Part shown: in pieces, positions 15,458 through 48,358 of the stretch
How positions within the stretch are numbered: the first letter of the stretch is position 1
How the letters are laid out: each line of letters begins with the position of its first letter
Source of the DNA: Candidatus Margulisiibacteriota bacterium
GTDB lineage: Bacteria > Margulisbacteria > Termititenacia > Termititenacales > Termititenacaceae
DNA length: 62,198 bases
Assembly: GCA_031274525.1 (NCBI GenBank)
Contig: JAISQA010000041.1
Span: 1 to 62,198 of the forward strand
Direction of reading: 5' to 3'
The notes under the pieces: generated by a model
The model's database searches: none
Seen by the model: only the letters and a program-made list of their open reading frames with translations
What the model was told of the DNA's origin: nothing
Position numbers and translations under genes: made by a program

Positions 15458-15503
15458 AATATGCAAGTTTTGCCCCGGAACTTACGATATAATTATGGTG
15501 AGG

Positions 15504-15690
15504 GAGGCCAGCCGCCAGTGCGGCCGGTGCGCCTGCGCGCGTAAGGAAAAACGCGCCTGGCAGGTCACCCGCCAATGCGATTGACACGCCTGCGCGCGCA
15601 AGGAAAGACGCGCTTGGGCAGGTCACCCGCCAATGCGGTTGACACGCCTGCGCGCGCAAGGAAAGACGCGCTTGGCAGGCCCGACCCCGG
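15504..15690 (+). repeat. three 57-58-bp tandem repeats plus a partial fourth, each with a GC hairpin
   Basis: Units lie at 15504-15560, 15561-15618 and 15619-15675. Units 2 and 3 differ at one substitution and one indel. Confidence 0.85.
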
Positions 15691-18700: not shown

Positions 18701-18844
18701 CTGGGAAATAATAAAGTGAGATATGAAAGACCCGGACATGCGGACAATGGCAAGGAATATAATATAGTGAATGGTCAATTAGTTTTGGTTCAAAATATAA
18801 CAACGGGGCGAGCATCCACCGAAGATATTCCCACTGGCTTGTAA
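15782..18844 (+). CDS. 1,020-aa acidic protein of unknown function with a C-terminal Gly/aromatic module shared with the giant ORF
   Basis: GAGGAG SD. It is a long ORF in AT-rich DNA with no signal peptide and no known motifs. The C-terminus carries GRRFTY..YVLSYANGWKIE. Confidence 0.8.
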   Translation: MRFLYCQTSGVAERRALPGAGLPARPAERVTANASILNNAGIDQPNDFLKYFDNNGKIKDISGFEEFLKAKGWTAAAITTMFAQNGTQYYFFNESFKSKNDLTIADFQEFITSQIVRYARANPGAAADKPWYKFDSYNIVPTVNETALRTALLNTDQTKIPTEIKKQYCLLDDSNNVIGIKENCADYLLVALIKNKGEEYYNSKFSGAAGNAYRVFKTPEDWGVFLAGLLPARAAGDIIGGIEVNNDEEGTGTTRGLNESLDLESLDPETAAELSAGKKLLTEYKEILDPAKQSSYQRYSKAENEAKNAIAKAEADDATTEDQQKALQAQLIFEQAELAMQKEIAKKIADRGYTIEEVKNILAAVCVNPYEIDNMEKVIELYFSVMSADERFNQTQVEADIAAVEAKIPDTYLNQYGQEKTDVVQSLRYGLYAKLFEYNPTTESLNNYIDALERYLPADYSESGQSRAEILSKAKAQGQVWIKDRQVAIEFDKYNQAWQKLYGENGQPIENNYTIENVRAFEAAAKNLQAVISAIDQRYKTENMNNIQVLAEESLADLPVMYADVYVYRMFNVVDGQYVIDPDGVNEADINKLKEIINSSSFERDKSYGDETTYGRHYDSLLTVAEQELNKKSAGETADKKTPIRVAGEDEAEAARRRAREDGEAVALQRAVHKENIENFLSVYNAFAGVGSLTAAELKQPVDNFLDFINSQACSSAVLNEKLSDEKSIAEHIHIRLMDIIEWHSVDNSIADSTTYLPKILAGFNKLKEQDSTWNLDNIAQLLTIHYKTPVTVSAEGRLVNNAGQATEQQRVETRASSGTARSQPLSSWSRPATSPWGNVTVSGLDNGNGLNGRLKVVKRDGTALGEFPMGDWVGSSGRRFTYTDGQEYVLSYANGWKIEALAAGQPGTAASSAPAAGGRTNSGTPVVSDAPQKYAAGSDLFALGGTQYRLSGAIIYWNDLGTRNYGTSYYKWLGNNKVRYERPGHADNGKEYNIVNGQLVLVQNITTGRASTEDIPTGL

Positions 18845-19008
18845 AAATACCATTTCTTGTCCCGGTTACTACTTATGGAACCGGTCGATGGCAAATGGGG
18901 TGAAAACACAAAAAAATATAAAGTCCTTTCGTTAAATATAGCATGCAAGTTTCTGCTTGATTTCATCGATATATAAGTTGTATTCGGGAGTGTGAGGAAG
19001 TTTTTTGA

Positions 19009-19068
19009 AAAGGACAATTCTTAGCGCCAGTCGTAATTGGCTGGCGAGAGAATTGTCCTTTTTTGTTT
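19009..19068 (+). terminator. long-stem Rho-independent terminator
   Basis: AAAGGACAATTCT ... AGAATTGTCCTTT stem with an inner CGCCAG/CTGGCG stem, followed by TTTTGTTTG. Confidence 0.6.
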
Positions 19069-19127
19069 GTCTGGCAGGTATAAGTGCTAGAGAAAGGGGG
19101 AATAATGATTAATAAGGAGAAATCAAT

Positions 19128-22100
19128 ATGTCGGAAATAGTAAGTCTGCCTAAATATATTCCGCAAAGTAATGAGCTTAAAATCAATGGTGAAATATCCA
19201 GAGGAGAAGAAGCCAGATACGGCGCGGCTCTGAATGCGATTCTGGCGGACGATAATCCGCTCAGAGTGTCGATGGAAAATAGTTTTAACACAGAGAATTT
19301 AACTCCGCTGGAGACCAGACTTTTACTGGTGGCCTTGCTTAAAACAGCTGATTTTTATAACCCGGATGTGCTTTGGTTTGTTCAGGAACTTTTGTCCGTC
19401 AATGGTCAGGATATTCAGAGTCTTGGTCTGGGGCAGCTAAAAAATGCGGTGGTTGATTTACTGGATAAAAATTCTCCAGCGGTGAGTGCGCAGATTAAAT
19501 CTATAGCGGAACGGATCGTCACCGAGCACGAGCAGGGCCTGGCTTCCAGCCTTGATGCTCGAACTAAAGCGGAATTAAAATATTTTGCCGGTGAGGTGGA
19601 AATTGGCAAAATCAGCCAGCTGGAAGCTTTTGCGGTAAATTTTGTAGAAACAGAATTACTCGGCATGCGGTTTTCCAGAGAGGAAGTTTTAGATATAGCG
19701 GAGCGGATAACGGCCGGAAAAAAACTCTCGGATTCTATTAAGTTCGCATTGAAAGCTTTTGCCGGAGATGCGGATCTCAGTACTGTGAGCAAGCTGATAG
19801 AATTTGCCAATGCGCTGGAGCCGCTGCCGGAAGTAAGCTTGGCGGAAGTGGAGCAAGAAGAAATAACGGAAGGGCCGGATATTCAAGAAACAAACGAGGG
19901 ACATAATGCTCAGCCCGGAAATGCGCCGCAACGCCGTGCTTACAGAACGAGATACACCGCTCCGGCCAGGTATACTCCGCCCGAGTCTGATGATAAACCA
20001 ATTATTCGTTATACACTGGAAGAGCTCGGCGAATATATAAAAGAGAATAGCTCCCCTATTAGCAGGACAATATCTGCCGAATATTATGAAAAATTTATGA
20101 CTGACGGTAAAATAGACCCGCTGAAGTTAGTAGAATATCGTAGTGCCAGATATTATCCAAATTTTTATGCGCGCATGATGATTAATTATATATGCGGGGG
20201 CGATAGAGAAATACTGCGTGCCTTTAATCCAGATGGTTCGCTCAATGAGAATCCGCTAACCGACAACGAAAAGCGTGGCTTGCATGAACGGGCTGTTGCC
20301 GCGGGAGTGTTGCGCGGTAATTATGAACAAGCTCAAGTTATTGCCAAATCCTTGAAAGTACCTCTGGCCATGCTGGAAAATATTACGGATGTATTATACG
20401 TTGAGAAGTTTAAAGATACAGAACTATATAAGCTGATTAGCTGGTATAAAGAGAATGATATTCCTGCGCCGCCGGAATTAATCTTAAGGTATGCTTCTTC
20501 CGCAGAGGTGGCTGAATTAAAAGAAATCAAAATCTGGCTTGGCCGGCCGGTCAAGGTGCCGTGGCCGGACGGGGAACAGGCTGACCTCTGGGAATTGTAT
20601 AAAACGCAATATCAATCCTATATAAAACTGTTAGACGATTTGAACCAGCTTGACTGTTATATATCAGACGTTGAATATGAAGAGATTACCTTTCAAAGTC
20701 CGGACGGAAGGAAAGTCAGCGATTTTGTTCTAAGCGAAGTATTTAGCCGATTTTGCGCGGGTTCTGTATATGGCGATATGAAAACCATTCTGTTTGATTC
20801 TACCCAAATGGATATAGAGAAGCTGATGCAGTTGTGGTCTGAATATCTGGAACATATTAAAACTAATCGTCCGCTGGCAGAACAGATGCCGGGAATTGAC
20901 AATCTGTACAAAGAGCCGATGAGAATGCCCCTGCCGGTGGATTTTATCCGCTTTGTGTTTGAAAGGGTGAATTTTCTTAGCGCTGAATCCAAAGCAAGTC
21001 TGCTGCGTTCTATTTCTCTGGCCGGGCTGAACAATTTTCGGCTGGAAGAGTATAACCCGGTGATTGAGCAAATTACGGCCTTAGGCGCGCCCGTAATGAA
21101 TTCCGCGGAAGTGAAACGCTATGCTAATTCAGCTTTTTTGGAAGCCGCTTCGCCTTATCGAATATATGGCAGTCTTACGCTGGATCAAATAACCAGACTG
21201 CTCTCCGGGAACAGGACAGTCGATGTAAAAAAATTCCTGTCTCCGCTGACGGATAATTTTCTGTTAAATATGCGCCAGGCATTGATGCTTAGTGATTATG
21301 AACAGGGCTTCCGGGAGGGTGCCAGCCCGGATATTCTGGTGCAAAAAAGACAAAATTATAAAACCATGCAGGTATTTTTACAGAAATATCCTTCTCTTTA
21401 TACGATAGAACATAAGAGCGGTGAATTTCAGCAGGAATTATTAGTAATATTAAAAGCAATGAGCTCCTGCGCAAAAAACGGCGCGTTGCTGCTGGATTAT
21501 GATAGTTATTTCATTAATAGCCTGGCCAATTTGATCTATATCGCGGCGTTTACGGCCTGTGATGATGAAGTCCAGTGCGATGACTTTATAAAAAGCGTCC
21601 TGCCATATATGCAGGATATAGAGACAGCGCTGCAAAATATAGATAGAGAAGAGTATGAACTGCATACTATAGACACAGAAGGGCAGCGGAGGGAGGGCGG
21701 CGATTATGCGACGTTTAAGGCTATTTTAGCCGACATACTTCTCTATAATGAAGGAGGTTTATCTCATATTAGGGAATACAGAGCAGCCATTGAGGAGAAT
21801 CTTAAAGCCAGCCTTGATGTTTTGTCAGATGTATATTCCACAGTCGGTTATTCTAAAGAAGATATAGAAGCTTTTAATCAAATAGTAAATACTTATCTGC
21901 ATCTGCCGCAGCATCCGGAAATTTTAGAGCAGGATATAGAAGAAGATATACGGATTATCCTTTTATATATAATGAAAGATGTAGCTCCTGAAGAATCTGC
22001 AGATACTGTTATTTCACCGACAGATCTACAGCGCAGCGCGCTGGTTAGAGAAACAATCCGGTTTTATGAACAAACCAAAAAAGCCCTGGCCAACCAGGAG

Positions 22101-25100
22101 GATAATTTAACAATATTGATGAATATCCTATTCAATTTCATAGTCATATTGCGACAGGGAATACGTGCAGGACAGACATTGGATTTGCTGAATGGCGGTG
22201 ATAGCGCAACTTATGCTTCTATACTGGATGCTTTCGTGGAAGATAAATATGAAGAACTGGATACCAATGGGGACGGGGTGGTTGACACTATGAATATGCG
22301 CCCGGAGTCGGAGCGAACCAATCCTCTGGCAGATTTAGAAGCCTATTCTGAAAACGAACTGAGGTACTTCTCCGGGGCGCTTTATTATGGCCGGGACAAG
22401 CTGAAAAATCTCACAACCTATGCAGAAGCAAAGGCTTTTTATACAGCTCTTGCCGGGCTCCAGCCGCCGCCGTCCGGGCTGGAAACCTTTGGCCGTAATT
22501 TTGCGGCTGATTTTGCGGATAGGCATAGACTCTGGACATACGAACGGCACATAGAGTTTTTAATTGCCGGAGAAAACATTCTGACTGGTTTGGACAAAAA
22601 TACAAAGGAGCAGCTGCTTAAAAAACTCAAATTGAGCGACTCTTTCCTGCATAATAAAAGTATAAATATAATAAGTCTGCTGTTTCTCAAAAGCACCAGC
22701 GGAAACGTGTATCAGACGGCGCGCAAAAATACAGAGGCCGGGCTGAAAAATACTCTTGCTCAGAAAGCGGCCTCCGCAATTGATGCGGTATTTCAGACAG
22801 CGGCTGGCACGGATTGGTCAATGACCAAAGAATATATCGACGAGATATACCATACTTACGATACATACAGACGGCAGGATGTAACCTTCAAATCTTTAGT
22901 AAATCAATTGAGCACAGTGAAGACGATTAATGAAGGATTAATGGCTGGTGAGAATCTGCTGTATGGCGGTCACGGGGGTATAGCCATAAACGGCGGAACA
23001 GATCCATACAGAAAAGAAAATGAAAATGCCTTGGCTACGGCGGCGTTTACTCCCTATCGAAAACTGATCGAACTAGCGGTACGTTTTAATATTCAGGTGC
23101 CGATCTATGTTTATTTTACTCTGCCGCTGGATATTGTCAGAGACCTGTGTGATTTTTTTAGCAATTTGGACAGCCCCGATCGCTGGAACGCACTGATGAA
23201 TGCCGGGTCCAGGGTTGTGGAAATGGCGACCTGGAGAATGACGATTATTAACTGGCTGAAAGAATTCTTTGAGAAAATGGCGGCTGGTCAGTACCTGGAG
23301 GCGTTTTGTTCGTTGTATGTTACGCTGTCTATTGGGCAGGGCTTGTTTAAAAAGACGCTGGATCTGGTAACTCTCAAATCACCCAAAAATGCCGGACTGC
23401 GCTTGCTGGACACCTGCGGCAGGCTGCTGGGGAGAGAAACAGTTCGTCATCTGAATACAAAAACCTTAAATGCCGAAATTGAATTACTGGGTAAATCCCC
23501 GGAGGCCCCGGAGCTTGCCGCCTGGAAAAGGGCTATGCAGAAGTTATCCGGTTTGTCTAAATATGGTTTGTATCAACTGACCGAATCTGCGTATAAACTG
23601 GATGCCAGCGTTGTCCGCGATCGTCTTGACGCGGTGTACAAAGAAGCGCAAAAAGCCGATGCGCCGATGCAGGAGAGGCTCTATCTCGGAGATTTGGCGG
23701 CAAACTATCCCGGACCATCAGAGATAAAGGAAGCAACGGTTAACCAGGCAGGAGCCGTTGTTAATGGCATGGCGACCTGGGGCTGGTTTGGCGTGCGTAA
23801 AAGTTTTGGTCTGTTTTCACATGGAGTCAATTGGGCTGTAAGCAATGTCTCTGTACCCGCTTTGCTCAAGAGCGCCAACGCCGGCTTGTTTAACAGCATA
23901 GAATACAACAACAGCATGAATTTTTTCTACAATGCCGGACGGAAATATATATTTAGACATGGGGTATCCATAGGTGTTGGCAATCATAGGGTTGGTTTTG
24001 GTCTGGGTAATTACGGGCATTTTTTCAATTTTTCTTACGGTAAGCATACCGGTCGGTTTAAGAAGATACGCCTTTTTTCTCCGGTTACCTTGAATAAAAC
24101 AATGATAGAAAGCGCCCAGGAACGTTTAACTAAATACCTTGATGACTATCTCCGGGATGAAATGGAGCGCAACCCGGAACTTGAGTCGGCGCTTAAAGCC
24201 CAGTACTTCAAAGAACATCCGGACGTTCAAAGCGTGTCGGTCGAGGAGTTGTTGAAATATCAGGCGGACAATCTGCCTGTGGCGAGAATACGCGAATTGG
24301 CCAGTGAATTCTGGCGCGGGGCCCTGCTGCCGGATATGCGCACGGAGCTTAAAGCTAATGTTGAAGGCGTAAGCGTAAAGGACGGCAAGACAGTATTAGA
24401 AAAAACAGACGCTATGGATAAAGTAGAACCGGTCAGCACGCAGGAAATAAAAGATGGTTTTACGATTACCTGGCGGGAAAGAATAGCAGGAGACAGCTAT
24501 GAAACTAAAACTGCCAGAATTTCTAACTGGGGGGAGGCCAAAGAGCAGATTGAAAGAATAATGCGCTCTATTAGTTCTCCGGCAGACGCTAAAGCGGCTC
24601 TGCCGGATTTGCTGAAACTGTATTCGGTGGCTTACCATGAAGCAAATAAACTGTTGTCGCCGCCTAAAGATTTGACCCTGCTGAAATCCCAAATGGCAAC
24701 GGATTATGAAATCCTGAAACAGTGCATAGACGGGAAAGAGATTGTCGCTGCTCAGCTGGTGGCTGGAGGCGGAAAAACAGTGACCGGAATTATCGGCATG
24801 CGCATAATGCAGAATTTAATGGGAAAGAAAGACCCGGCAACCGGCAGATATATTATTGAGCCGGCGCCTATCGTGTATGTGGTGCCGCAGGATTCTCTGC
24901 TGGCAGAAATTCTGGAAAAGAACAAAGACGCGCATCAATTGCTTAAATTATTATTTGATGGCGATATCGGCAAAGGTTTTGATGTGATTGAAACTGTTGA
25001 ACAGCGCATGGTTCCGGGCCGGATTACTTATATTTCTTTGCAGACATTATTTTTCAAGTTTATTAGCAATCCGGGGTCGCTGCCCTCCTCAAAGATCGCT

Positions 25101-28100
25101 TATATCTGGGATGAATTTGATAAGTACTTTTTCTTGGATTCGGATTTTATCAGCACGCAGCCGCGTTCAGATGTACCCTGGATACGCCAGCTTTCCAGAA
25201 CTGCCGTGCGGCACACTCTGGAAAAAATAGCAGAGAATATTGATAAGGCTTTAGGCATGGAAAATAAGAATCTTTTTATGGAAATAAGTAAACGTATTCA
25301 GGATGATCCTGCTTGCCGGACGCCAGAAGATGTGCTGGCTAAATTTCCAAACTGGAATAGCCTGCCCGCGGTAGAACAGGCATATCTAAAACAAATTATC
25401 ACGGCGGTATATAGAGCCAGAGGGCTATACTACGATCAATACCCGGAGCATCCTAAGAGCAGAACTAATGATGTTTTTCGGATGGCAGAATTGGATATAG
25501 ATCCTAAAACCGGCGCTGTCTATATGAAACCCGGCGGGGAAATTCAAAAAGATCTGAAAATGAATTATGAGGATAATATTTTCTTAAAGCTGGCGCTGGA
25601 TGCAATATGGAAAATGGATGAGGGATATTTCAAAAAAGAAGAAATAAATATAAAGAAAATAGAGCTGAATATTTCGCAGATCAATGAAACCTTGATGAAG
25701 GTCGGTATACCTCAGCTGATGCATGAGACAGCCGGCCGAATTATTGGCCTGACCGGCACTCTGCAGGAATCCCTGTCGATTATTAGGCCGCTACTGGATC
25801 AAATGTCGTCCCTGCGGGGCAGATCCTGGGATTGCTTCTTCTTCAAATCCTGGGAGACTTTTCCTACCTTTACCCTGAATAAGGACAATATTGTAAATTT
25901 TTTACGCAATCCCGGTTCTTATACAAAAGAAATCGCAGATATTTATGCCAAATATGCTAAGGATAAAACAGCACTGGGCACATTTAAGTTATTTGTAGAT
26001 AACGTGCGGGTCAATGAACCTATCATCGCCGGTAATAAATTATATGTGACCGTAGGCGGGGAACAGATCGAATATGCTTATACGGAGAGAGAGAATAAAC
26101 AATATGTAACAATCGGAAATAAAGAATATGAATATACCGGAAATATTTTAGATGTGTTGCTGCGCGCGCAGCTGGATGCTTTGCCCCCGGACATTGCGGG
26201 CAGGCCGCCCTCTACGCCTGAATTAAAGACTGTGGACTACCGCGGTATATATGTTAGCCCGGATTCTAAAATTCCGGCGACTAGAAAGGATAGTCTGAAC
26301 CTGGCTGCCGCAGAAACGGTAAAACAAATTTATGAGATTGATAAAAATACAGGTGGCATTACTTTTAAGACCACAGCTTTGCTGGACTGGAATATGTTAA
26401 ATCGAGCGGATATTACTATTTTAAGAGAAGCGCTGGTTGCCGCGGTCAAAGACGCGCTGGGAGGAAAACAAACAGTATTGGTGGACTTGGATGGCAAAGG
26501 CCAGAAGAGCCTTTCTCCGAAAGAATTTATCGATAAAGTTTTTTTGGCGGATATCGACGCTAAAGGAGATCCGGTTAAAATGAGCGATATTCGCGAGGCT
26601 GCTACGCGCAAAGGCACTATATTGGCCTTGAGCTGGGCTAACCGCGGCACGGACTTTGGCTGGAAGGCGGATCCCTATATTGGCGTTCTTGGCTTCACGC
26701 CTTTGAAAGCTAATCTGGTCCAGACTGTATTCCGCGGCCCACGTTTCAAACTGGGCGCTGTAGTTGATTATTACATTTCTGCCGAAGATATAGGCTCTTA
26801 TTTAAATATGCGCGAGGGTTATCTCGATATTAAAATTGACGGCCAGGACGTCAATTTAAGAAACAGCTGGAATTCTGTTCAAGAGCAGTGCCGCAATGTT
26901 CCTGCGGAAGAATTCTTTAAACAGAATCCTGCTTTTCTCAATGAATGGCAAAACTTGCAGGCGCAAAGCGTTAAAGCTAAAGCACAGGATGTAGAAGCCA
27001 GAAGACTGCTAATGGCCGAGTTTCTGCGGCAGAATGCTGAATTTGCCAAATATGAATGGCCGCGGATACAACAAGCAGGCAAAGGTAAAAAAGACTTTGA
27101 CCCGATAAATGAATTTTTCCGTCAGCACCCGGATAAACTTGCTGCGTGGCAGGATTTGCCTAAAACCTATCCTGAAACAGTCTTTTTAAATCAGCATCCC
27201 GAATTGGCCGCAGAGTGGCAGAAATTTCAAAAGCAGTATTATAAAGATCCAGTCCAGGAATATTTGGCTAAATATGAGGGGCACTTTGAACTTATTGAAG
27301 CAAGAAAAGCCTCGGCGATGAACAGCATTAATATTGATAATCTCCGGGATTATAGTTTAATCTATGCCGCCGGGGTCAAAGATTTTGCGGAATTTTATCG
27401 TCTAGCTATGGATAAGTATATAGATGTATGTATCAGCAGATTTTATTTTGCCTGTCCGCTTGGTCAAAAAATGACAGCGGAAACAATCAAACGCGGCATA
27501 GAAAATCTACGCACCGCGCTGGCGGAAATCGGCCTCTGGCACGTTAATCCGTTGTTTAATGGTGATTATAAGCGCTTGGTTGCGGACTTAGAAGCTAATC
27601 CGCTGGAAGCACGCAATATTATTAGAGCATTTATTCAAGAACAAAAAGGCTCTCTGCCGGATACGAACGGTCCATATCGGCAGGAAATGTTAAAAGCGCT
27701 GAATTATCGGTCAATATCTGAGGCAATATCTGAAAAAGAAATGCGTGAATTCAGGCGCGCAGGCGGAGATACCGGCAAATATACCGGCCCCGGAGATGAT
27801 CGTAAGCTTGTTTTTGATTTCAAGATCGCCCAGACAGTATTAAAGCCCGGACGGAAGACAGCGGTGTATACGCCGGAAATGTTGCAAAATAGTAATACTC
27901 TGCCCAGCCGGATTATTGTTGAGGTCAACAGCCAGGAAGATCTGACTACCCTCAAAGCATATTATGATAGCTTGAATTTCCGCCAGTATCCCGGCTTGCA
28001 GCGTGTTTTTGAGCAAAATATAGTTATCAGGCTTGGTCAGAATATGATTGATAGAACAGCGGACATTGCGCAAATTTTTCATATTTTTGATCCGAGCGTT

Positions 28101-31100
28101 CAAATCAGCGCGGCTGAACAAACTTTCCGGGTTGCAGATATTGCCCGGACAGGCCCACAAGCCTTGCTGGAAGCTATTTTGCCTAAAGACGTAAAGGGAG
28201 AGACGGTATTTTTTGTTTCCTGGACTGAAGATACAGGCGCCGCACGGCAAATTAACGGTGTTTATACGCCGCCGGAGGAAAAATCTATCGATTTGCGCGA
28301 TTGTACTGTACAAATGGAACGCATTTATCAAGCTATTGAACAGGCTATAAATCTGCCGCCGAGAAATTTGCGCAAATATCTGAAAGAAACTCTGGATTTT
28401 TATGGTATTGAAGCAAAAGCCATAGACAAAATTCTGAACTGGACAGCTAATAACAAGAATAATCTGAGCACGCTGGAAATGATCCACGGTACGGATGAAG
28501 TAGTCTGGTTTACCGCCGCACAAAAAGCTGCGGCGTCCGCCCTGAATGTTGATGTGGAAAAAGTGGAGGCTGTGCATACCCATCCTACTCGCGGCGCCAG
28601 CGCCAGTGAGAGTGATATTCGTACTGGCAGCAGCCATGTGCTCTTTAGAGATCGTACGGGAGAATTAATTTTTGTGCAGAATACAAAACGTGAATTGTAT
28701 GTGCGGACAGATGAACAGGGCAGAAAAATATACGCTCCCTATCCGACGATTGCTCAAGAATCGTCACCGACTATGCGCACGCGTGCGATAGATACAAGCG
28801 TGCTTGTTGAAGAAGTGGATGATCTAAAACCTGCTGAGACAGAAACAAAAACAAAAACTACGATATCTGGAGACGTGTCGGAAGATGTCCCCAGGACTTC
28901 CTCTATAGATGGCAATGGCGCACTCAAGTTTGCCGATCAGGCAATCGCAGGCCTAAGCCAGGATATTGCTATTGGCCTTAGTGAGCAGAGTATGCTGCCA
29001 AGCACGTTGCTGGGGATACAGGCTCTGGGTGAAGAACTGGCCAGCAGCGGTCGAACAGAGGAAATAACCAGATATAATGATTTTGTTAGAGAAGTGACTG
29101 CGGATCCATATTTATTTCTTTTGAGCGAGGAGATAGATAGATTAAAAATAACCGATCCTTCTGCCAAACTTGGGGCTACTCTGCAGGCTTATAATAATCG
29201 TTATCAGACTATTGCTGGCGCGTACAAAACGGAATTTGAAAGCAAAGGATTCAGCATTGGCAGAAGACTTTTGGATAGGCTGGATGAGACCCGCGGCGCT
29301 TTTCTGATCGGACTGGCCATGTCTTTGAAAGCGGAAATTACGGACAAAACACGCTCGGCAATGTCTTTTACCCAGAGAGCCAGTGATTGGGTAATAAATA
29401 TCCCTCAGAATACAGGCTTTGGCATCTTTTGTTCATTTAGGGACAATATATTAACAGATGCATCCTTAAAGCTTGTGAACTGGTTTGCCGGTACAAAACT
29501 GGTCGATGTGCCCACCCTGGCCAGGAATACTGTGATACCCAACCGCGATCTGCGTGCTCTCGGAATACAACCTCCAGCTTCCAGCCGCTTGGCCTATGCC
29601 AAAGGCTGCGGGCAGTATTTGCTGGCGGTTGCCCCGGCGCTTTTTGCGGCAGGTTTTGCGACAGAAGGCGTAGTCGCAGTAATGAATAATCCGGAGTATG
29701 AGAAACTGGCGCTCAGCGCTGATCCTTACGATCAGGAAATGTTTATGGCAATCTTACTTATTACCTGCATGACAGAAGGCGCGACTAATGTGCTTTACGA
29801 ACTGCCTACTATTTTGTCGATGCTCTTTCCGGCTCTGGCTGGCGCTAAAGGCGTAATTATTTCTCTGATACGTACAGGCGGCGGTGTTGCGGCTATGCAG
29901 GCTGGCGGAGCGCTTATCAGAAAAAATATTACCGACCCTTTGATCAAGTATGCTTGTGCCAGAATAGAGCAAAAACGGGCTGAAAATAGGGCCAGAGGCA
30001 TAGCCGATCCTCCGCCGCTCGGCCCGGAAGAAATAGCCCATAAATTTAATCTTTTGAGTACATATTCTTCGGTGGTCAAAAATACAATGAATAAGGCGGG
30101 CAGCGCATTTCTGACCAGATTTTTATCTATCCTGCCGCAGAAATCTTTAACTATGCTGGGCAACCTTGGCCTGAAACTTACAGCCAAAGGTCTGGGCGGC
30201 AAAGGCCTGGAAATGCTGGCCGGCAAATGCCTGGCTGTGGCCGGATCAAAAATTGTTACCAAAGTTATTCCGGTTATCGGCTGGGTGCTTGTCGGTATAG
30301 AAGCTGCAGATTGGCTGGCTGGTTCTATAGAAGATGTGTTTGCCCCGAATCCTATGAAACTAAGCGCGCAGGCCTATGCCGCTCTGGATAAGACAGTGTC
30401 TTTGCGGGAGTTTATAGATATTAATCGTTTTGACGGCGTGCAGTCCCTGCCCTTTGAAGTAGCCCAGCAATTAGAACGCGCCGGTTATTTTCAGCAGGTG
30501 CATGACCGGCTGATGGGCGAAGTGCCGGAGGAAAGTAAATATGAATTCGAAGCAATGTGGCAGGAAATGGTCGGAGCCTTGCACAGCGGAAGTATCACCG
30601 CGCTGCGGGATTTCTGGCAAAAAGCCTGGGTTATCGGTTCTCTGGGCCGGGTATTTGACACTTTTCTCAATGGTGGAGTGGGTGCCAATTTTGGCGCCAC
30701 TGGCGACGGCTATGTTGCTATTGGCGGGCGGGAGGCAATTAACAGCTCCTCCAAATTTTTTGAGGCGGTCATGACCGAAGCATTCAAATTATTTTATACA
30801 GAAAACGTAGACCGTTTTAATAGTTCGGCAGAGCTTTTAACCAGCACGGATGCGCGGGTCAGAGGCGCTTATGATAACTATCTGGGCTTGCTGTCCGCCG
30901 CAGACCGGGATAATGCAAAAATGGCCTGGGGCAGTATGTTTACTTCTTTTATGAGCAGAACGGATTTAACGGTGCCGATTTATCCTGGAGCCAGTCAAAG
31001 AAGATCTGCTGTGTCTCAGGTGGATAAAGAAGCGGCTTTCTTAGAATATATGCGTACACAGGGCATAACAATAGATGCTGCTGACTGGACTTGCACAAGA

Positions 31101-33827
31101 GTTAATACGGATTTGCGTACTGTCAGAACAGCGCCGCACAGTATTTCTGATTTGCTAATGCCCAATGGCCTCTTTGCCGCCGATAAAGATGCTTTTGTGG
31201 ACTTTGTGCAATGGCTGGCTTTTGAGTGCAAAGATGCGGATAAATATATTATGCAGTATGACCCAAATGCTTCTTCATACGTATACTGGGAGAACACAGT
31301 GCTTCCCAAAATAATTCAGCTGCTGAATTACAAGGGTCCTGGACGCAATGGTTATGGCCGGAGAGATTTAGCCGCTGATTTAGCCAGAGAAATTATTCCC
31401 TTGTTGTCCGGTGATAGTCTGTTCTTTGATATAGACGCAGCTTTGCAGAAATACCTTAATTATCGGCTTGATCAGGCCAGCGCCTTTTCCACGCAGAAAG
31501 ACCGCCAGACTCTCAAAGAGCAAGGGGCCGTCTGGAGTCTGTCCAGAGCCAACACCGCAAATTCCAGCGCATTTATCGAAGATACGTTAAAAGTGCTGGA
31601 TCACGTTTCTGGCCGCACTGTATTAGACACTGCGGAGCAAAATCGTCTGCGCGCGGTCATTGCTTATTGGGATGAACAGTCTGAAGCGGATAAAGTCTTT
31701 ATGCGTAATTATCTTACCGGACAAAACCGTGTTGCGGCAAATTTAAGGAGCGGCAGGATTGATTATGTGGATTTATTAGACAAGGTATCTGTGGGCAGGA
31801 CAACCCTGCAAGTACTGTCTGAAATAGATAATATGCGGGCTATGTCTATTGCCTGTCAGGTTAGCAGGGAGCAGAATGGATTTACTGCTGTAAGTTATTT
31901 TACCCAATTGCTCAAGTCTACAGACATTCCCGCTGCGGAGTGGCCGGATAAACTGGGCCTTTTCTTGTATATGAATAATTTACAGGAAGACAGTCTTTTA
32001 TCCGCTGGTCAGACTATTTTTATCAATATTGACGCGCTGCCTTCCTGGGTCATTAAAGAGGCCGAGCCTGAAATCAAAAAACGTCCCGGAGATGCTTCCA
32101 GAGATATAAGTCCTTTGGCTGTGGCGGAGACATTGCGTTTGGCCAGAGAGATTACCGGCACGAGAGAAATAAGAAATCACGGGCAGAGAGGTGCTGTTAT
32201 ACGCAGGGAACCAATCTACGGGGATTATAAGTATGCCTCCACGGAAAATTTATTAAAAAATATTGCCGATCAAGAAAGAGCAGCAGTTTATCTGCTCTCT
32301 GAACAAGCCAACAATAATATTGTGCGGCGCTTTGCTTTTGGCGGTACTCCTGACCAGAGAATTTCCCTGCAAATGACGGAAGGAACTGTTATGCGGCCGG
32401 CCAGAGTAGCTGCTTCTATGAGTAATTATAATAAAGTGCGCGGTGAAATGCTGGCAAGAGGCCTGATCGCTGCTGATATGCAGGCCTATGATGTTATACA
32501 GACACTAGGAGCTTATCAGGAATTTAGAACGATCTATGAAGACGCTGACCGGAAAGTGCCGGAAACCATAGAAACGCTCAGACCTCTGGCTCTTAAACTG
32601 GGAATTACTATTCCGCAACCCCCAACCGCGGAAAGTGTTTATAAAGCATACGCCGAATTGGCCTCTGCCATCAATGCCGCTTGCGGCAGGCCAGCGCTGG
32701 AAATAGATCTGCTGATTGTTGTTTTACAAATCAAAAAAAACATAGCTGAAGATACCAGGGTGAAAGATAAAAAATCCGCTATGTTGAACAGCCTGATCGT
32801 AATGGGTCTGTTTAATAACAGCGCGACGCTTGATTTAGCGGAAAGCATTGTAGCGTTAATGGACAATACTATACCGGTAGGGCCTTTGAATGTTGATGGC
32901 ATACACTCGGGCGCTTCCGGTGAAGAAAATCTGGATGCACTGCTTGTGTTAAGCGGCATAATTACGGCAACAGAGGCAGGCCGTCACAGAGATGCCTTTG
33001 GAGTGTCTATTGATTGGCTGTTCCAGCAAAATAAAATAGAAAATGCCTCTCCAGAAAAACTGACTGATCTGGCCAAAAATCTTTATTTGCTGCATTCTAC
33101 GCTGTCCAATTCCGGTAACTTATATCGCTGGAAAATAGAAGCTCTTATTCTCAGTTCGCCGGCTTTATTGAAAACAATGCTGGTGCATGGTTATAGTGTG
33201 TTTATCAAGGATGAAGTGGTTGATTCTAGACTTGGTTATAATAGTTACCGCCCGTCTTTGGAGAGAACTATTACGGCATTGCGTAATCAGGACCCTTTTG
33301 CCGTCGCTTGTGCTGACTATTTACAGACATTATTGGATACTCATACTGGAATAAAGGCTTCTCGTCAGACGGGGGCGACAGCAACTATTACGCAGGAACA
33401 ATGGGAAACGGCTGTTAATACAGAATTTACGGGCACAGATGGACCGCGTAAGGGAGAAAAATACAGATTGGTGAATGGACGGGTTTACTGGCATAATAAT
33501 GGAGTTTATCAGGCTTCAGCGAGTATAACCGTGAGAAATAATCAGTATTATGTGAATAATCAAGAATATGTTATTCAAAATAATCAACTGGCGCCTAAAA
33601 ACAGGGCCGTTTTATCTATGACTTTGGTTCTTGATGGACAGAGTGTTGCTGTATCGGGATTTGACGCTCGTTTGAGCGAAGCCAGCACCTCATTAAGGAT
33701 TAATGATCAGGAATATCCGCTGGGAACATGGGTTCCCGGCAGAAATGGCCGCCGGTTTACTTATAATGGACGGAACTATGTATTGCGCTATGAAAATGGC
33801 TGGAAAATAGAACGACTGAGCACCTAA
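19128..33827 (+). CDS. giant 4,899-aa multidomain protein with SF2/SecA-like ATPase motifs, a JAB/JAMM metallopeptidase motif and a TM cluster
   Basis: AAGGAG SD 8 nt upstream. The ORF is 14.7 kb and uninterrupted in roughly 35-45% GC DNA. Motifs are AGGGKT, DEFD, GLTGTL, NRGTDF, FRGPRFKLG and HTHPTRGASASESD. Confidence 0.85.
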   Translation: MSEIVSLPKYIPQSNELKINGEISRGEEARYGAALNAILADDNPLRVSMENSFNTENLTPLETRLLLVALLKTADFYNPDVLWFVQELLSVNGQDIQSLGLGQLKNAVVDLLDKNSPAVSAQIKSIAERIVTEHEQGLASSLDARTKAELKYFAGEVEIGKISQLEAFAVNFVETELLGMRFSREEVLDIAERITAGKKLSDSIKFALKAFAGDADLSTVSKLIEFANALEPLPEVSLAEVEQEEITEGPDIQETNEGHNAQPGNAPQRRAYRTRYTAPARYTPPESDDKPIIRYTLEELGEYIKENSSPISRTISAEYYEKFMTDGKIDPLKLVEYRSARYYPNFYARMMINYICGGDREILRAFNPDGSLNENPLTDNEKRGLHERAVAAGVLRGNYEQAQVIAKSLKVPLAMLENITDVLYVEKFKDTELYKLISWYKENDIPAPPELILRYASSAEVAELKEIKIWLGRPVKVPWPDGEQADLWELYKTQYQSYIKLLDDLNQLDCYISDVEYEEITFQSPDGRKVSDFVLSEVFSRFCAGSVYGDMKTILFDSTQMDIEKLMQLWSEYLEHIKTNRPLAEQMPGIDNLYKEPMRMPLPVDFIRFVFERVNFLSAESKASLLRSISLAGLNNFRLEEYNPVIEQITALGAPVMNSAEVKRYANSAFLEAASPYRIYGSLTLDQITRLLSGNRTVDVKKFLSPLTDNFLLNMRQALMLSDYEQGFREGASPDILVQKRQNYKTMQVFLQKYPSLYTIEHKSGEFQQELLVILKAMSSCAKNGALLLDYDSYFINSLANLIYIAAFTACDDEVQCDDFIKSVLPYMQDIETALQNIDREEYELHTIDTEGQRREGGDYATFKAILADILLYNEGGLSHIREYRAAIEENLKASLDVLSDVYSTVGYSKEDIEAFNQIVNTYLHLPQHPEILEQDIEEDIRIILLYIMKDVAPEESADTVISPTDLQRSALVRETIRFYEQTKKALANQEDNLTILMNILFNFIVILRQGIRAGQTLDLLNGGDSATYASILDAFVEDKYEELDTNGDGVVDTMNMRPESERTNPLADLEAYSENELRYFSGALYYGRDKLKNLTTYAEAKAFYTALAGLQPPPSGLETFGRNFAADFADRHRLWTYERHIEFLIAGENILTGLDKNTKEQLLKKLKLSDSFLHNKSINIISLLFLKSTSGNVYQTARKNTEAGLKNTLAQKAASAIDAVFQTAAGTDWSMTKEYIDEIYHTYDTYRRQDVTFKSLVNQLSTVKTINEGLMAGENLLYGGHGGIAINGGTDPYRKENENALATAAFTPYRKLIELAVRFNIQVPIYVYFTLPLDIVRDLCDFFSNLDSPDRWNALMNAGSRVVEMATWRMTIINWLKEFFEKMAAGQYLEAFCSLYVTLSIGQGLFKKTLDLVTLKSPKNAGLRLLDTCGRLLGRETVRHLNTKTLNAEIELLGKSPEAPELAAWKRAMQKLSGLSKYGLYQLTESAYKLDASVVRDRLDAVYKEAQKADAPMQERLYLGDLAANYPGPSEIKEATVNQAGAVVNGMATWGWFGVRKSFGLFSHGVNWAVSNVSVPALLKSANAGLFNSIEYNNSMNFFYNAGRKYIFRHGVSIGVGNHRVGFGLGNYGHFFNFSYGKHTGRFKKIRLFSPVTLNKTMIESAQERLTKYLDDYLRDEMERNPELESALKAQYFKEHPDVQSVSVEELLKYQADNLPVARIRELASEFWRGALLPDMRTELKANVEGVSVKDGKTVLEKTDAMDKVEPVSTQEIKDGFTITWRERIAGDSYETKTARISNWGEAKEQIERIMRSISSPADAKAALPDLLKLYSVAYHEANKLLSPPKDLTLLKSQMATDYEILKQCIDGKEIVAAQLVAGGGKTVTGIIGMRIMQNLMGKKDPATGRYIIEPAPIVYVVPQDSLLAEILEKNKDAHQLLKLLFDGDIGKGFDVIETVEQRMVPGRITYISLQTLFFKFISNPGSLPSSKIAYIWDEFDKYFFLDSDFISTQPRSDVPWIRQLSRTAVRHTLEKIAENIDKALGMENKNLFMEISKRIQDDPACRTPEDVLAKFPNWNSLPAVEQAYLKQIITAVYRARGLYYDQYPEHPKSRTNDVFRMAELDIDPKTGAVYMKPGGEIQKDLKMNYEDNIFLKLALDAIWKMDEGYFKKEEINIKKIELNISQINETLMKVGIPQLMHETAGRIIGLTGTLQESLSIIRPLLDQMSSLRGRSWDCFFFKSWETFPTFTLNKDNIVNFLRNPGSYTKEIADIYAKYAKDKTALGTFKLFVDNVRVNEPIIAGNKLYVTVGGEQIEYAYTERENKQYVTIGNKEYEYTGNILDVLLRAQLDALPPDIAGRPPSTPELKTVDYRGIYVSPDSKIPATRKDSLNLAAAETVKQIYEIDKNTGGITFKTTALLDWNMLNRADITILREALVAAVKDALGGKQTVLVDLDGKGQKSLSPKEFIDKVFLADIDAKGDPVKMSDIREAATRKGTILALSWANRGTDFGWKADPYIGVLGFTPLKANLVQTVFRGPRFKLGAVVDYYISAEDIGSYLNMREGYLDIKIDGQDVNLRNSWNSVQEQCRNVPAEEFFKQNPAFLNEWQNLQAQSVKAKAQDVEARRLLMAEFLRQNAEFAKYEWPRIQQAGKGKKDFDPINEFFRQHPDKLAAWQDLPKTYPETVFLNQHPELAAEWQKFQKQYYKDPVQEYLAKYEGHFELIEARKASAMNSINIDNLRDYSLIYAAGVKDFAEFYRLAMDKYIDVCISRFYFACPLGQKMTAETIKRGIENLRTALAEIGLWHVNPLFNGDYKRLVADLEANPLEARNIIRAFIQEQKGSLPDTNGPYRQEMLKALNYRSISEAISEKEMREFRRAGGDTGKYTGPGDDRKLVFDFKIAQTVLKPGRKTAVYTPEMLQNSNTLPSRIIVEVNSQEDLTTLKAYYDSLNFRQYPGLQRVFEQNIVIRLGQNMIDRTADIAQIFHIFDPSVQISAAEQTFRVADIARTGPQALLEAILPKDVKGETVFFVSWTEDTGAARQINGVYTPPEEKSIDLRDCTVQMERIYQAIEQAINLPPRNLRKYLKETLDFYGIEAKAIDKILNWTANNKNNLSTLEMIHGTDEVVWFTAAQKAAASALNVDVEKVEAVHTHPTRGASASESDIRTGSSHVLFRDRTGELIFVQNTKRELYVRTDEQGRKIYAPYPTIAQESSPTMRTRAIDTSVLVEEVDDLKPAETETKTKTTISGDVSEDVPRTSSIDGNGALKFADQAIAGLSQDIAIGLSEQSMLPSTLLGIQALGEELASSGRTEEITRYNDFVREVTADPYLFLLSEEIDRLKITDPSAKLGATLQAYNNRYQTIAGAYKTEFESKGFSIGRRLLDRLDETRGAFLIGLAMSLKAEITDKTRSAMSFTQRASDWVINIPQNTGFGIFCSFRDNILTDASLKLVNWFAGTKLVDVPTLARNTVIPNRDLRALGIQPPASSRLAYAKGCGQYLLAVAPALFAAGFATEGVVAVMNNPEYEKLALSADPYDQEMFMAILLITCMTEGATNVLYELPTILSMLFPALAGAKGVIISLIRTGGGVAAMQAGGALIRKNITDPLIKYACARIEQKRAENRARGIADPPPLGPEEIAHKFNLLSTYSSVVKNTMNKAGSAFLTRFLSILPQKSLTMLGNLGLKLTAKGLGGKGLEMLAGKCLAVAGSKIVTKVIPVIGWVLVGIEAADWLAGSIEDVFAPNPMKLSAQAYAALDKTVSLREFIDINRFDGVQSLPFEVAQQLERAGYFQQVHDRLMGEVPEESKYEFEAMWQEMVGALHSGSITALRDFWQKAWVIGSLGRVFDTFLNGGVGANFGATGDGYVAIGGREAINSSSKFFEAVMTEAFKLFYTENVDRFNSSAELLTSTDARVRGAYDNYLGLLSAADRDNAKMAWGSMFTSFMSRTDLTVPIYPGASQRRSAVSQVDKEAAFLEYMRTQGITIDAADWTCTRVNTDLRTVRTAPHSISDLLMPNGLFAADKDAFVDFVQWLAFECKDADKYIMQYDPNASSYVYWENTVLPKIIQLLNYKGPGRNGYGRRDLAADLAREIIPLLSGDSLFFDIDAALQKYLNYRLDQASAFSTQKDRQTLKEQGAVWSLSRANTANSSAFIEDTLKVLDHVSGRTVLDTAEQNRLRAVIAYWDEQSEADKVFMRNYLTGQNRVAANLRSGRIDYVDLLDKVSVGRTTLQVLSEIDNMRAMSIACQVSREQNGFTAVSYFTQLLKSTDIPAAEWPDKLGLFLYMNNLQEDSLLSAGQTIFINIDALPSWVIKEAEPEIKKRPGDASRDISPLAVAETLRLAREITGTREIRNHGQRGAVIRREPIYGDYKYASTENLLKNIADQERAAVYLLSEQANNNIVRRFAFGGTPDQRISLQMTEGTVMRPARVAASMSNYNKVRGEMLARGLIAADMQAYDVIQTLGAYQEFRTIYEDADRKVPETIETLRPLALKLGITIPQPPTAESVYKAYAELASAINAACGRPALEIDLLIVVLQIKKNIAEDTRVKDKKSAMLNSLIVMGLFNNSATLDLAESIVALMDNTIPVGPLNVDGIHSGASGEENLDALLVLSGIITATEAGRHRDAFGVSIDWLFQQNKIENASPEKLTDLAKNLYLLHSTLSNSGNLYRWKIEALILSSPALLKTMLVHGYSVFIKDEVVDSRLGYNSYRPSLERTITALRNQDPFAVACADYLQTLLDTHTGIKASRQTGATATITQEQWETAVNTEFTGTDGPRKGEKYRLVNGRVYWHNNGVYQASASITVRNNQYYVNNQEYVIQNNQLAPKNRAVLSMTLVLDGQSVAVSGFDARLSEASTSLRINDQEYPLGTWVPGRNGRRFTYNGRNYVLRYENGWKIERLST

Positions 33828-33976
33828 AAAAAATGCAACAAATTTCTGCTGCTTACGATATAATAGTGTAAGCGGTTTTATTAAAAAGGTAATTGGACGG
33901 AGGTGAAGCACTAAGCGTATTTTGGTTTCTGGAGTTTTGGTTAAAATAAAAATATACATTATGAAAGGAGAAAGTT

Positions 33977-34393
33977 ATGAGATTTTTAAATTGTCAGGTT
34001 TTTAGTGGAAGTAGTATTAGTACAGCAGCCGCTGCGGCAAATCTTGGTAATAAAGGCCCGGGATCTGAGGCGGCTGGTGGTGCCCAGAAAAAAGCACTTG
34101 ACACCACTGAGGTTCAGAAAATAGAAGGAGCGCAGGTTGTTGCTGGTAGAGGAGGCCGTTCAGCTGCTGGTCTTTCCAGGGTGGCTGCTCTGAATACAGC
34201 CAGTACTCCTGCCGCTGCTGCTGAGAACACCAATTCAGCTGCTGGCCTTTCCAGAATGGTTGCTGTAAGTACAGCCAGTGTTCCTGCCGCTGCTACTGAG
34301 AACACTAATCCAGTTGTTAGTCTTTCCAGCACGGTTGCTCTGAGTACAGCTAGCGATCCTGCCGCTGCTAATGAGAACAAGGACGCGGACTAA
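33977..34393 (+). CDS. 138-aa Ala/Thr/Asn-rich protein with three 25-aa tandem repeats
   Basis: AAAGGAG SD. It shares the MRFLxCQ N-terminus with the 1,020-aa protein. A terminator follows. Confidence 0.55.
   Translation: MRFLNCQVFSGSSISTAAAAANLGNKGPGSEAAGGAQKKALDTTEVQKIEGAQVVAGRGGRSAAGLSRVAALNTASTPAAAAENTNSAAGLSRMVAVSTASVPAAATENTNPVVSLSSTVALSTASDPAAANENKDAD
34163..34387 (+). repeat. 3 x 75-bp in-frame tandem repeat (AAGLSRVAALNTASTPAAAAENTNS-like units)
   Basis: Units start at 34163, 34238 and 34313. Confidence 0.8.
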
Positions 34394-36778: not shown

Positions 36779-36793
36779 TTTCCCTGCAACTTA

Positions 36794-36822
36794 TTCTCTA
36801 AAGATACGATATCTTTAGAGAA
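36794..36822 (+). other. perfect 12-bp stem / 5-nt loop hairpin in the 54-nt spacer between the 761-aa and 405-aa genes
   Basis: TTCTCTAAAGAT-ACGAT-ATCTTTAGAGAA. It abuts the GAGG SD of the next gene and has no T-tract. Confidence 0.5.
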
Positions 36823-36832
36823 GAGGCCTTTT

Positions 36833-38050
36833 ATGCGTATATCTTATAAAGAAAAAGAAACATTTCCCGTTTTGAATGAGACTGCAACGCAGCAGATGGT
36901 ACAAATTATTAAAATAGTTCAAGAGCAGAGATTTTATCTGTATGATTTTGATATTGCTGAATATGGTGCGGAAAATTTCCAAAAATTTATAACTTTAATA
37001 GAACGCAAAATAGGTCATGCTGCGGCAGCTGTAGTGGCTTTTTACATGGCGGATGGAGTCCGGGACTGGCGTAAAGTTGCGATTGGCTTAGATCTACTGG
37101 ATTTGGCCAAAATAAATTGTGAAATAGCTATTGCCAATAATCTGGATCGGAATAAAACAAAAGCAGATATTGTGTATGAAGTGCTTAACGGCTTAAATGG
37201 CCGCCAGCCGCTGGCTCCCAGGTATGATGGGGAGAATAAAACCCTGATGGGCTTGTTTTTCCGAATTTTGACCGGCGCTACCCGGGAAAATGAAGGCCGG
37301 TATTTGCAGGCAGATTGCAAGCCTTTGACCGTGCTGTTTTATTCAACCATGTCCGCTTTAGGCGAAAAAACAAAAATTCATTTAACAGAATGGATAGATG
37401 AAGAAAAAAATACGCGTCACATGTATTCTGCACTCGAAAATGGCCTTGATTACGAGCATACCCATGATGAGGATAACTATGAAAGGCGTCATGAAAGACT
37501 AAAGAAGATATATGATGATCAAATATTAGACAGTATTTGGCCGGTAATAGCAGAGGAAATGATAACTGTTTGGCTGGCCAATAAGTCTATGGATACGGAA
37601 AAGAACATTGCCACTTTAGAGCAAGTCAGAATTTTAGATCGGAGCAATCTGGTTGTTTTAGGAAACCTGGTTCCTGAATATACAAAAAGACTTGCCGAAA
37701 TGGCAGGTGAATATGATAGAACTCAGGGTGAAGAGAAACAAGCTATTCTAGATAACTACATAAATCTATTAAAATATACTAATGAACTTTTGCTGGAATA
37801 TATTAGGAGTTATGTCAGGGTATATGAAGAAATAGAAAAACCGGAATTAAAAAAATTATTCAGAGAAAACAGAATTAAGGGATTTATAGATAATCTGGTC
37901 TGTGGCGAGGAAGCTATTTCTCCTGCTTTAGAACTTGCTTCCCGGGAAACACAGATAATTTTCGAACAACAATTAGCTGAAATCAAAGCGTTAAAAAATT
38001 TATTAGTGGATAGTTTGACAGTAAGACAGGCTCTTTCCCGCATGATATAA
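36833..38050 (+). CDS. 405-aa hypothetical protein, last gene of the AT-rich block
   Basis: AT-rich ORF co-directional with the preceding genes. No recognisable motif. Confidence 0.65.
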   Translation: MRISYKEKETFPVLNETATQQMVQIIKIVQEQRFYLYDFDIAEYGAENFQKFITLIERKIGHAAAAVVAFYMADGVRDWRKVAIGLDLLDLAKINCEIAIANNLDRNKTKADIVYEVLNGLNGRQPLAPRYDGENKTLMGLFFRILTGATRENEGRYLQADCKPLTVLFYSTMSALGEKTKIHLTEWIDEEKNTRHMYSALENGLDYEHTHDEDNYERRHERLKKIYDDQILDSIWPVIAEEMITVWLANKSMDTEKNIATLEQVRILDRSNLVVLGNLVPEYTKRLAEMAGEYDRTQGEEKQAILDNYINLLKYTNELLLEYIRSYVRVYEEIEKPELKKLFRENRIKGFIDNLVCGEEAISPALELASRETQIIFEQQLAEIKALKNLLVDSLTVRQALSRMI

Positions 38051-48222: not shown

Positions 48223-48328
48223 CCTGCGGAAAAAAGCCGCCCGTAACCGGCAGGCTAAAGCCGGGGCTGTGCGCCAAAGTTGCTGCTCAGACAGAGTTTC
48301 AGGGAGTTTAAAAACCTTAAAAAGAGTC

Positions 48329-48358
48329 AAAATCCCCCAGTGTGGGGGATTTTTTGGT
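48329..48358. terminator. bidirectional Rho-independent terminator
   Basis: AAAATCCCCCA-GTG-TGGGGGATTTT with T-tracts on both strands, between convergent genes. Confidence 0.65.

Follow-up and report, generated by a model that had tools for sequence, protein, structure and literature searches.

A giant gene with SecA-like ATPase motifs in a conserved five-gene cassette of Margulisbacteria

Few parts of microbial genomes are as poorly understood as the giant genes of bacteria, and we know of none from Margulisbacteria, the uncultured sister lineage of Cyanobacteria, that has been characterised so far. The lineage is rich in uncharacterised very large genes and proteins (bioRxiv 10.1101/2023.11.21.568195; PMC11573180). 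In some giant bacterial proteins, divergent ATPase domains of the SecA type occur together with transmembrane regions, and self-export has been proposed for these proteins without experiments (bioRxiv 10.1101/2023.11.21.568195); they include the Omnitrophota 'archaeovorins', dockerin-type giants and some actinobacterial proteins (West-Roberts et al., bioRxiv 10.1101/2023.11.21.568195). Here we describe gene B, a giant open reading frame (ORF) in a contig of a Candidatus Margulisiibacteriota bacterium (JAISQA010000041.1; the window, 62,198 nt). The first-pass annotation of this DNA, made from the sequence alone, had treated gene B in isolation; it belongs instead to a conserved cassette of five genes, A to E (Table 1).

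The reading that we favour, tentatively and at somewhat less than an even chance, is that gene B encodes a membrane-associated, ATP-driven machine for the export or assembly of itself and/or of the products of genes A and C, with the product of gene D as a processing enzyme. Membrane location, export activity and the identity of the substrates are the parts of this reading that we infer.

The giant gene, its relatives and their cassettes

Gene B is a genuine coding gene over its full length. Its translation has zero internal stops across 4,899 codons, while its own base composition gives a per-codon stop probability of 0.059, or one stop expected every 17 codons, and a probability of about 1e-130 for a stop-free frame of this length. 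The remaining five frames contain 121–381 stops, and the longest ORF in any of them encodes 265 aa (27840..28637, minus strand). GC content at each of the three codon positions (GC1, GC2 and GC3), as well as purine and G content at the first position, were uniform in 10 of 10 bins of 500 codons; the entire length therefore looks coding, with no fused non-coding stretch apparent. The N-terminus (MSEIVSLPKYIPQSNELK) lacks a hydrophobic stretch, comparison of the protein with itself produced no hits at E < 0.01, and Tandem Repeats Finder (TRF) reported just two tiny repeats within the gene, of 52 bp and 35 bp. On these grounds (no self-similarity, only the two TRF repeats and no N-terminal hydrophobic stretch) we rejected a repeat adhesin of the RTX, Big or SRR type. 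Together, these data bear out the first-pass description of a single uninterrupted and very long ORF with 265 aa as its longest alternative-frame ORF, a good Shine-Dalgarno sequence at a spacing of 8 nt, no signal peptide and a non-repetitive product. Its reference to AT-rich DNA needs correcting: the AT-richness is moderate, as the ORF is 45% GC and lies in an island of 42–47% GC within a chromosome of about 55% GC.

An exhaustive phmmer search with residues 1840–3039 of the giant against 1.84 billion protein cluster representatives retrieved three proteins only: the giant itself, P0002 (4,282 aa, E = 9e-129) and P0003 (3,969 aa, E = 4e-49). P0002 was assembled independently; it follows the giant colinearly through aa 83–785, 1073–2949 and 3507–3829, and P0003 aligns to parts of the core of the giant (aa 1310–1413, 1836–2248 and 2386–2563). 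Conservation among the three giants is highest at aa 1801–2600, around the ATPase core described below, and the last ~500 residues are not conserved. Judged by sequence similarity, the giant represents an almost unique protein family, with three full-length members among the 1.84 billion representatives. No relative was found among GTDB species representatives or in IMG/VR, no protein with the ATPase patterns of the giant in the JGI metagenomes, and no tblastn match in 50,697 phage and 72,556 plasmid records; Pfam detected nothing in P0002 or P0003. Word-index searches with aa 1840–2639, with the alignment of the three giants and with the JAB-like segment (see below) also returned nothing, but they missed the known relatives too, showing that the index is blind to this family. 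A polyvalent giant protein of phages or plasmids was discarded as an explanation, given the lack of phage, plasmid or IMG/VR matches and of mobility genes in the island.

The exact protein is present on one contig only, as it would be if gene B had arisen by chimeric assembly or were an open frame without function. Nevertheless, the minute probability of a chance open frame and the uniform coding statistics speak against such an artefact, as do the colinearity with P0002 between aa 83 and 3829, the alignment of P0003 over core parts and the occurrence of both relatives in the same gene order. Colinearity across independent assemblies specifically disfavours a chimera, and we consider the chance of an artefact negligible.

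The genes for P0002 and P0003 lie in cassettes with the order A-giant-C-D-E, whose products measure 945, 4282, 103, 754 and 415 aa in the P0002 locus (L081) and 559, 3969, 207, 564 and 349 aa in the P0003 locus (L082), none of them with a Pfam match. The flanks of the three cassettes are unrelated: lexA and purH border the cassette of the window, pst genes, rmuC and recJ that of L081, and the trp operon that of L082. Gene D is homologous in all three, with identities of 50% and 23–25%, whereas the equivalents of A (945 and 559 aa), C and E (415 and 349 aa) keep position and size without detectable sequence similarity. In terms of sequence, the conserved core of the cassette is thus the pair of B and D, while A, C and E are conserved in position. 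RecJ from the L081 host is 58–61% identical to proteins of Ca. Termititenax and Margulisiibacteriota, and TrpE from the L082 host is 97% and 89% identical to those of metagenome-assembled genomes of Ca. Marinamargulisbacteria; these identities place both hosts in one phylum, Margulisbacteria, to which the known cassette hosts are restricted.

In the closest cassette, L170, the terminal part of a giant gene is visible (about 30% identity to aa 4741–4894 of the giant), and a C-like ORF and D follow it. Identity between the window and L170 is 75% for D and about 30% for the C-terminus of the giant; C is essentially unalignable beyond its MRFLNCQ start. A, C and the C-terminus of gene B diverge quickly and the putative enzyme D does not, a pattern that would be expected of exposed parts.

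Table 1. Features of the giant gene and its cassette, in coordinates of the window.
Feature	Position	Strand	Remarks
Promoter-like motif	15462-15491	+	Directly upstream of gene A
Gene A	15782..18844	+	1,020 aa; no family match; partly low-complexity; starts MRFLYCQ
Promoter-like motif TGCAAG-N17-CGATATA	18944..18975	+	Upstream of gene B
Hairpin + U-tract	19007..19070	+	Between promoter-like motif and gene B start codon
Shine-Dalgarno AAGGAG	19114-19119	+	8 nt 5' of gene B ATG
Gene B, giant ORF	19128..33827	+	ATG start; 4,899 aa
SF2 (DEAD/SecA-like) ATPase core	24690..26837	+	aa ~1855-2570; conservation peak
Motif I LVAGGGKTV	24756-24782	+	ATPase core
Motif Ia VYVVPQDSL	24873-24899	+	ATPase core
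Motif II IWDEFDKY	25104-25127	+	ATPase core
Motif III GLTGTL	25746-25763	+	ATPase core
Motif V SWANRGTD	26631-26654	+	ATPase core
Motif VI QTVFRGPRF	26721-26747	+	ATPase core
JAB/JAMM-like segment	28461..28640	+	Motif HTHPTRGASASESD at 28575-28616, aa 3150-3163
Hydrophobic cluster	29604..30332	+	aa 3493-3735; 4-5 Gly/Ala-rich segments; Kyte-Doolittle peaks 1.4-1.85; candidate for membrane insertion
C-terminal beta-type short module GRRFTYNGRNYVLRYENGWKIE	33708..33821	+	Common to gene A 18377-18490
Promoter-like motif	33834-33862	+	Directly upstream of gene C
Gene C	33977..34393	+	138 aa; Ala-rich; three 25-aa repeats; starts MRFLNCQ
Gene D	34493..36778	+	761 aa; putative zinc metallopeptidase
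Gene D HEVGH	35408-35422	+	H306, E307, H310
Gene D E340	35510-35512	+	Glu 30 residues past second His
Promoter-like motif	36785-36811	+	Directly upstream of gene E
Gene E	36833..38050	+	405 aa; no match; last island gene

Domains of the giant protein

Six motifs, in order, are invariant in the three giants: LVAGGGKT (I), VYVxP (Ia), WDE[FY]DK (II), GxTGTL (III), SWAxRGTD (V) and QxxxRGxR (VI). Walker A GGGKT (aa 1880–1884) and DEFD (aa 1995–1998) are likewise invariant in all three, K1883 and D1995/E1996 being the candidate catalytic residues, and an insertion of ~210 aa with no recognisable similarity separates motifs II and III. By its motifs, the set is that of a superfamily 2 (SF2) ATPase. 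The TGT of motif III, the RGTD of motif V and the insertion between motifs II and III are details that we take to be SecA-like rather than of the DEAD/DEAH type. In agreement with this, 9 of the 10 PDB matches to a profile of motifs V–VI were to SecA and in register, all of them below threshold (E ~0.9); PDB sequence and profile searches with the giant gave nothing significant, SecA appearing only at E ~0.9. Pfam matches to the ATPase core were sub-threshold and came from one member (DEAD, E = 0.075; ResIII, E = 0.13), and a comparison by hhalign with an unverified E. coli SecA sequence aligned the Walker A motif alone. Motif-level features of SecA are thus present and significant profile matches are not, so that the sequence does not establish membership of the giant in the SecA family.

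The hydrophobic cluster recurs in P0002 (2978–3336) and P0003 (3114–3432), in each at an equivalent relative position, and its region is similar in sequence to P0002 over aa 3507–3829; on its Kyte-Doolittle profile, it is a candidate membrane-inserting region.

Of the enzyme-like motifs that the first-pass annotation had seen scattered along the protein, the ATPase-type ones stand and are invariant in both relatives, and the JAB-type one is real as a motif but not supported as a domain. The segment that carries it scores 17.5 bits (E = 0.0038) with Prok-JAB, where the cut-off is 25, and 13.1 bits with RadC, where it is 22.1. Its HTHPx7SxxD motif, of the HxHx7Sx2D type, is expected 0.0016 times by composition, and a candidate catalytic Glu lies in TDEVVW, at a spacing that, by eye, seems shorter than is typical of JAB/RadC domains. 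Nothing in P0002 corresponds to the segment, and neither P0002 nor P0003 has the motif. A word-index search, blind to the known relatives of the giant, found no homologues of the segment, and Foldseek found no JAB matches to its poor single-sequence AlphaFold2 (AF2) model. Since the motif is sub-threshold and absent from both relatives, processing by an own JAB domain, as previously suggested, is not a property of the family; the motif would be, at best, part of a lineage-specific insert. Of the checks proposed in the first-pass annotation, homology search gave the two relatives, and segment-wise structure prediction gave poor AF2 models, with predicted local distance difference test (pLDDT) values of 51 (ATPase core, three sequences) and 48 (JAB-like segment).

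The last 38 aa of the giant are 63% identical to aa 866–903 of protein A (E = 1e-9), and the giant fragment of L170 ends in a similar module. The module reads GRRFTY..G..YVL.Y.NGWKIE; nearby YRL.G..YW motifs occur in A and in the giant, in swapped order.

This end of the protein bears on the possibility that gene B encodes a giant effector of the polymorphic-toxin type, secreted or delivered by contact, with a variable C-terminal module and with C as the protein that confers immunity or acts as a partner. Conservation is indeed lowest in the C-terminal ~500 aa of the giant, the C-terminus is ~30% identical in L170 against 75% for D, a small gene lies immediately downstream, and the Gly/Ala-rich hydrophobic region may resemble the translocation regions of large toxins. 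However, we recognised neither trafficking nor toxin domains, nor genes of a secretion system; the C-terminal module is common to protein A, and its short YxLxYxNGW-type motifs look to us more like beta-hairpins of a binding domain than like a catalytic one; and C, a disordered-looking, Ala-rich repeat protein, differs from typical immunity proteins. A classic polymorphic toxin was rejected, in view of the lack of such Pfam domains and of the low-complexity, repetitive nature of C, and we regard an effector of this general type as decidedly unlikely.

Island, partner genes and regulation

The window is a segment of bacterial chromosome in which nrdD, nrdG, glmS, a tRNA, a peptidase gene, a xerC/D-like gene, a dinG-exonuclease fusion, an hlyIII-family gene and lexA precede the cassette, and purH (38081–39580), nadA and further genes as far as clpB follow it. 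Genes A to E, all on the same strand, occupy a low-GC island (15.8–38.05 kb) between lexA and purH, with 42–47% GC and a GC3 of 0.32–0.52, against ~55% GC and a GC3 of ~0.70 in the flanks. The codon usage of gene B has a cosine of 0.98 with the other island genes and of 0.85 with host genes. The island was laterally acquired; its ends show no direct repeats, and we found no integrase or mobility genes within it. None of the five proteins had a significant match in Pfam, NCBIfam, PADLOC (5,027 models), PHROGs or PDB, none of the five has an N-terminal, signal-like hydrophobic segment by hydropathy, and an Rfam scan of the window found tRNAs only.

An island of this kind could also be an undescribed cassette for defence against phages or plasmids, in which an SF2 helicase or translocase would sense foreign nucleic acid or act on it and D, together in this lineage with the JAB-like segment, would serve as effector or regulatory proteases. 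Helicase-plus-protease designs are common among defence systems, and low GC content among housekeeping genes, a sporadic distribution with differing insertion sites and the fast evolution of cassette components would all fit; moreover, the weak best matches of the ATPase core include the nucleic-acid helicases DDX19B, RIG-I, DHX36, Cas3 and ASCC3. On the other hand, the five proteins contain no nuclease, methylase or usual effector domain, two of the partners are low-complexity, Ala-rich and repeat-containing, the giants share a conserved hydrophobic cluster, and the known hosts all belong to one phylum instead of being widely scattered. As none of the five proteins matched a PADLOC family, we rejected a known anti-phage system; the same result counts against an undescribed one, which we hold to be unlikely. 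If the defence reading is right, the cassette is a new defence system of unusual size.

Proteins A and C begin with the same residues, MRFL[YN]CQ, encoded with synonymous DNA differences (positions 15782–15802 in A and 33977–33997 in C); the C-like ORF from L170 (955–975) keeps MRFLNCQ and has diverged in the remainder. The shared start may act as a tag for recognition or processing.

Residues H306, E307, H310, E340, Y377, S379 and D380 of protein D are invariant in 15 of 15 sequences, a putative signature of gluzincin-type zinc peptidases, and no match to D was found in Pfam, NCBIfam or PDB, also when using a profile of the 15 sequences. A metagenome scan with gene D retrieved 14 further D genes, the closest being that of L170. 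The D family is wider than that of the giant and includes tandem pairs of paralogues in L173 (7945–12349) and L177 (8109–11656). D of L179 (9–12115) is accompanied by a 2,658-aa orphan that has none of the ATPase motifs; a small C-like gene and a gene for 377 aa come after the orphan.

Protein D has no predicted membrane segment. This agrees, as do the absence of signal peptides in the cassette and the predominance of helices, with some strands, in the two AF2 segments of low confidence, with an intracellular role for the giant as a scaffold or remodelling ATPase, cytoskeleton- or chaperone-like and not involved in export. Against such a role, which we regard as decidedly unlikely, stand the conserved hydrophobic cluster and the lateral acquisition of the island; moreover, A, C and the C-terminal part of B have diversified strongly, as would be unusual for a housekeeping scaffold.

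The promoter-like motif, TGCAA-N17/18-CGATA(TA), has five matches in the 62 kb, four of which are the sites before A, B, C and E. It recurs in related cassettes, at 6574–6601 and 9793–9820 in L081 (before A and B), at 7997–8023 in L179 (before the C-like gene) and at ~815–850 in L170 (before C). The motif may mark the site of a sigma factor or regulator specific to the cassette or to the lineage. The first-pass annotation had put a terminator (19009–19068) ahead of a separate start of gene B. The hairpin is real (−36.8 kcal/mol for 19007–19063, z = −7.5), but the promoter-like motif of gene B lies upstream of it, and it may belong to the leader of gene B. From this position, the hairpin could be an attenuator ahead of gene B and, at the same time, terminate the transcript of gene A; hairpins are also found 3′ of genes C and D. 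By eye, the leader of the giant gene of L081 (9778–10000) is built alike: inverted repeats with T-runs come after the promoter-like motif and before the start codon. Within the ~290-nt leader that separates gene A from its promoter-like motif lies a GC-rich 58-bp tandem repeat (15530–15679; 2.6 copies, 93% matches, a TTGACA in each unit), with no Rfam match and a fold not clearly better than that of shuffled sequences (z = −1.9).

Elsewhere in the window, a second low-GC patch (48000–50000, 38.6% GC) contains a gene for an AAA_14/DUF4143 ATPase (48365–49612, minus strand) beside a tRNA-Lys (49768–49841), and may be another small acquired element. Two more proteins are encoded among housekeeping genes: one of 234 aa with weak matches to the phage baseplate domain Gp10_C and to tail-fibre repeats (47162–47866), and one of 501 aa with fn3 and beta-propeller-like matches, in a stretch of 44% GC (55938–57443). 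PurH from the window does not exceed 55% identity to any of 185,579 GTDB species representatives, indicating that the host lineage is thinly covered. Look-ups by exact sequence yielded no record of the giant, of LexA or of PurH, and no housekeeping gene was found in common between the window and the Margulisbacteria contigs.

Proposed function and comparison with known systems

As an export or assembly machine, gene B would work through its SF2 ATPase with SecA-like motifs (aa ~1855–2570), with the hydrophobic cluster, some 900 residues further on, anchoring the protein to the membrane or inserting into it. The ATPase would drive the export or assembly of parts of B itself and/or of the low-complexity, fast-evolving proteins A and C, resulting in a surface or extracellular structure; D, through its HExxH...E residues, would process a component, for instance by cutting off the MRFL[YN]CQ tag, and E would be an accessory protein.

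Several observations weigh against this proposal. Neither Pfam SecA_DEAD nor any other family matched the giant significantly. The profile of the N-lobe of the ATPase retrieved Cas3 and ASCC3 from PDB (E ~0.7) rather than SecA. The AF2 model of the core, at pLDDT 51, is of low confidence, and its best Foldseek matches were nucleic-acid helicases and not SecA (DDX19B, with local probabilities of 0.84 and 0.75, RIG-I and DHX36; none with E < 0.001). The hydrophobic segments of the giant are of moderate hydrophobicity and bear charges. Additionally, the MRFL[YN]CQ start was not seen in L081 or L082, and L173 and L177 contain D homologs with no giant within 10 kb.

A more specific version would make the cassette a self-contained export or surface-assembly system exclusive to Margulisbacteria, in which one giant would unite a SecA-like motor with its own membrane conduit, recognise its substrates by the N-terminal MRFL[YN]CQ and leave their maturation to a dedicated zinc protease of a new family; we consider it unlikely, and, if true, it would be a new principle of secretion, independent of Sec, Tat and types I–XI. 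The export reading as such, if it holds, would imply a new route of secretion or assembly. The family is small and compact (4–5 k aa), with fixed partners and clear candidate catalytic residues, and offers a tractable entry to SecA-like motors in giant proteins.

Gene B shares with SecA the wording of its motifs (GxGKT, hVVPxxxL, DExD, GxTGT, RGTD and RGxxR) and the large insertion between motifs II and III. It differs in matching SecA at E ~1, in having the domain embedded 1,850 residues into a protein of 4,899 aa and in the lack of a recognised preprotein cross-linking, scaffold or wing domain. Similarly, D resembles the gluzincin zinc metallopeptidases in its HExxH and downstream Glu, invariant in 15 sequences, and departs from them in having no family or fold match in Pfam, NCBIfam or PDB.

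The gliding operon of Mycoplasma mobile, gli123-gli349-gli521-p42, encodes orphan giants of ~1.1 k, 3.2 k and 4.7 k aa together with an NTPase, and forms a surface machine. The cassette likewise groups a few genes for orphan proteins, a giant with an ATPase among them, in one narrow lineage, a likeness that we offer as an analogy only; its ATPase lies inside the giant, unlike in M. mobile, and it has no known link to motility.

A further likeness is that to the giants of West-Roberts et al., drawn at the level of motif features, which do not establish that gene B belongs to that class. As in those giants, gene B is a very long, largely unannotatable single ORF, with an embedded SF2 ATPase that has SecA-type motif details and lacks a recognised scaffold or wing domain of SecA; hydrophobic segments lie in the vicinity of this ATPase, and a protease-type element is associated. 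Conversely, Pfam SecA_DEAD fails to detect the domain of gene B, which is also much shorter (4.9 k against 30–85 k aa), has no glycosyl hydrolase, glycosyl transferase, dockerin, C39 or S8 domains, and contains 4–5 moderately hydrophobic segments where theirs are numerous. Gene B is further set apart from those giants by its place in a fixed five-gene cassette, next to a zincin-like partner.

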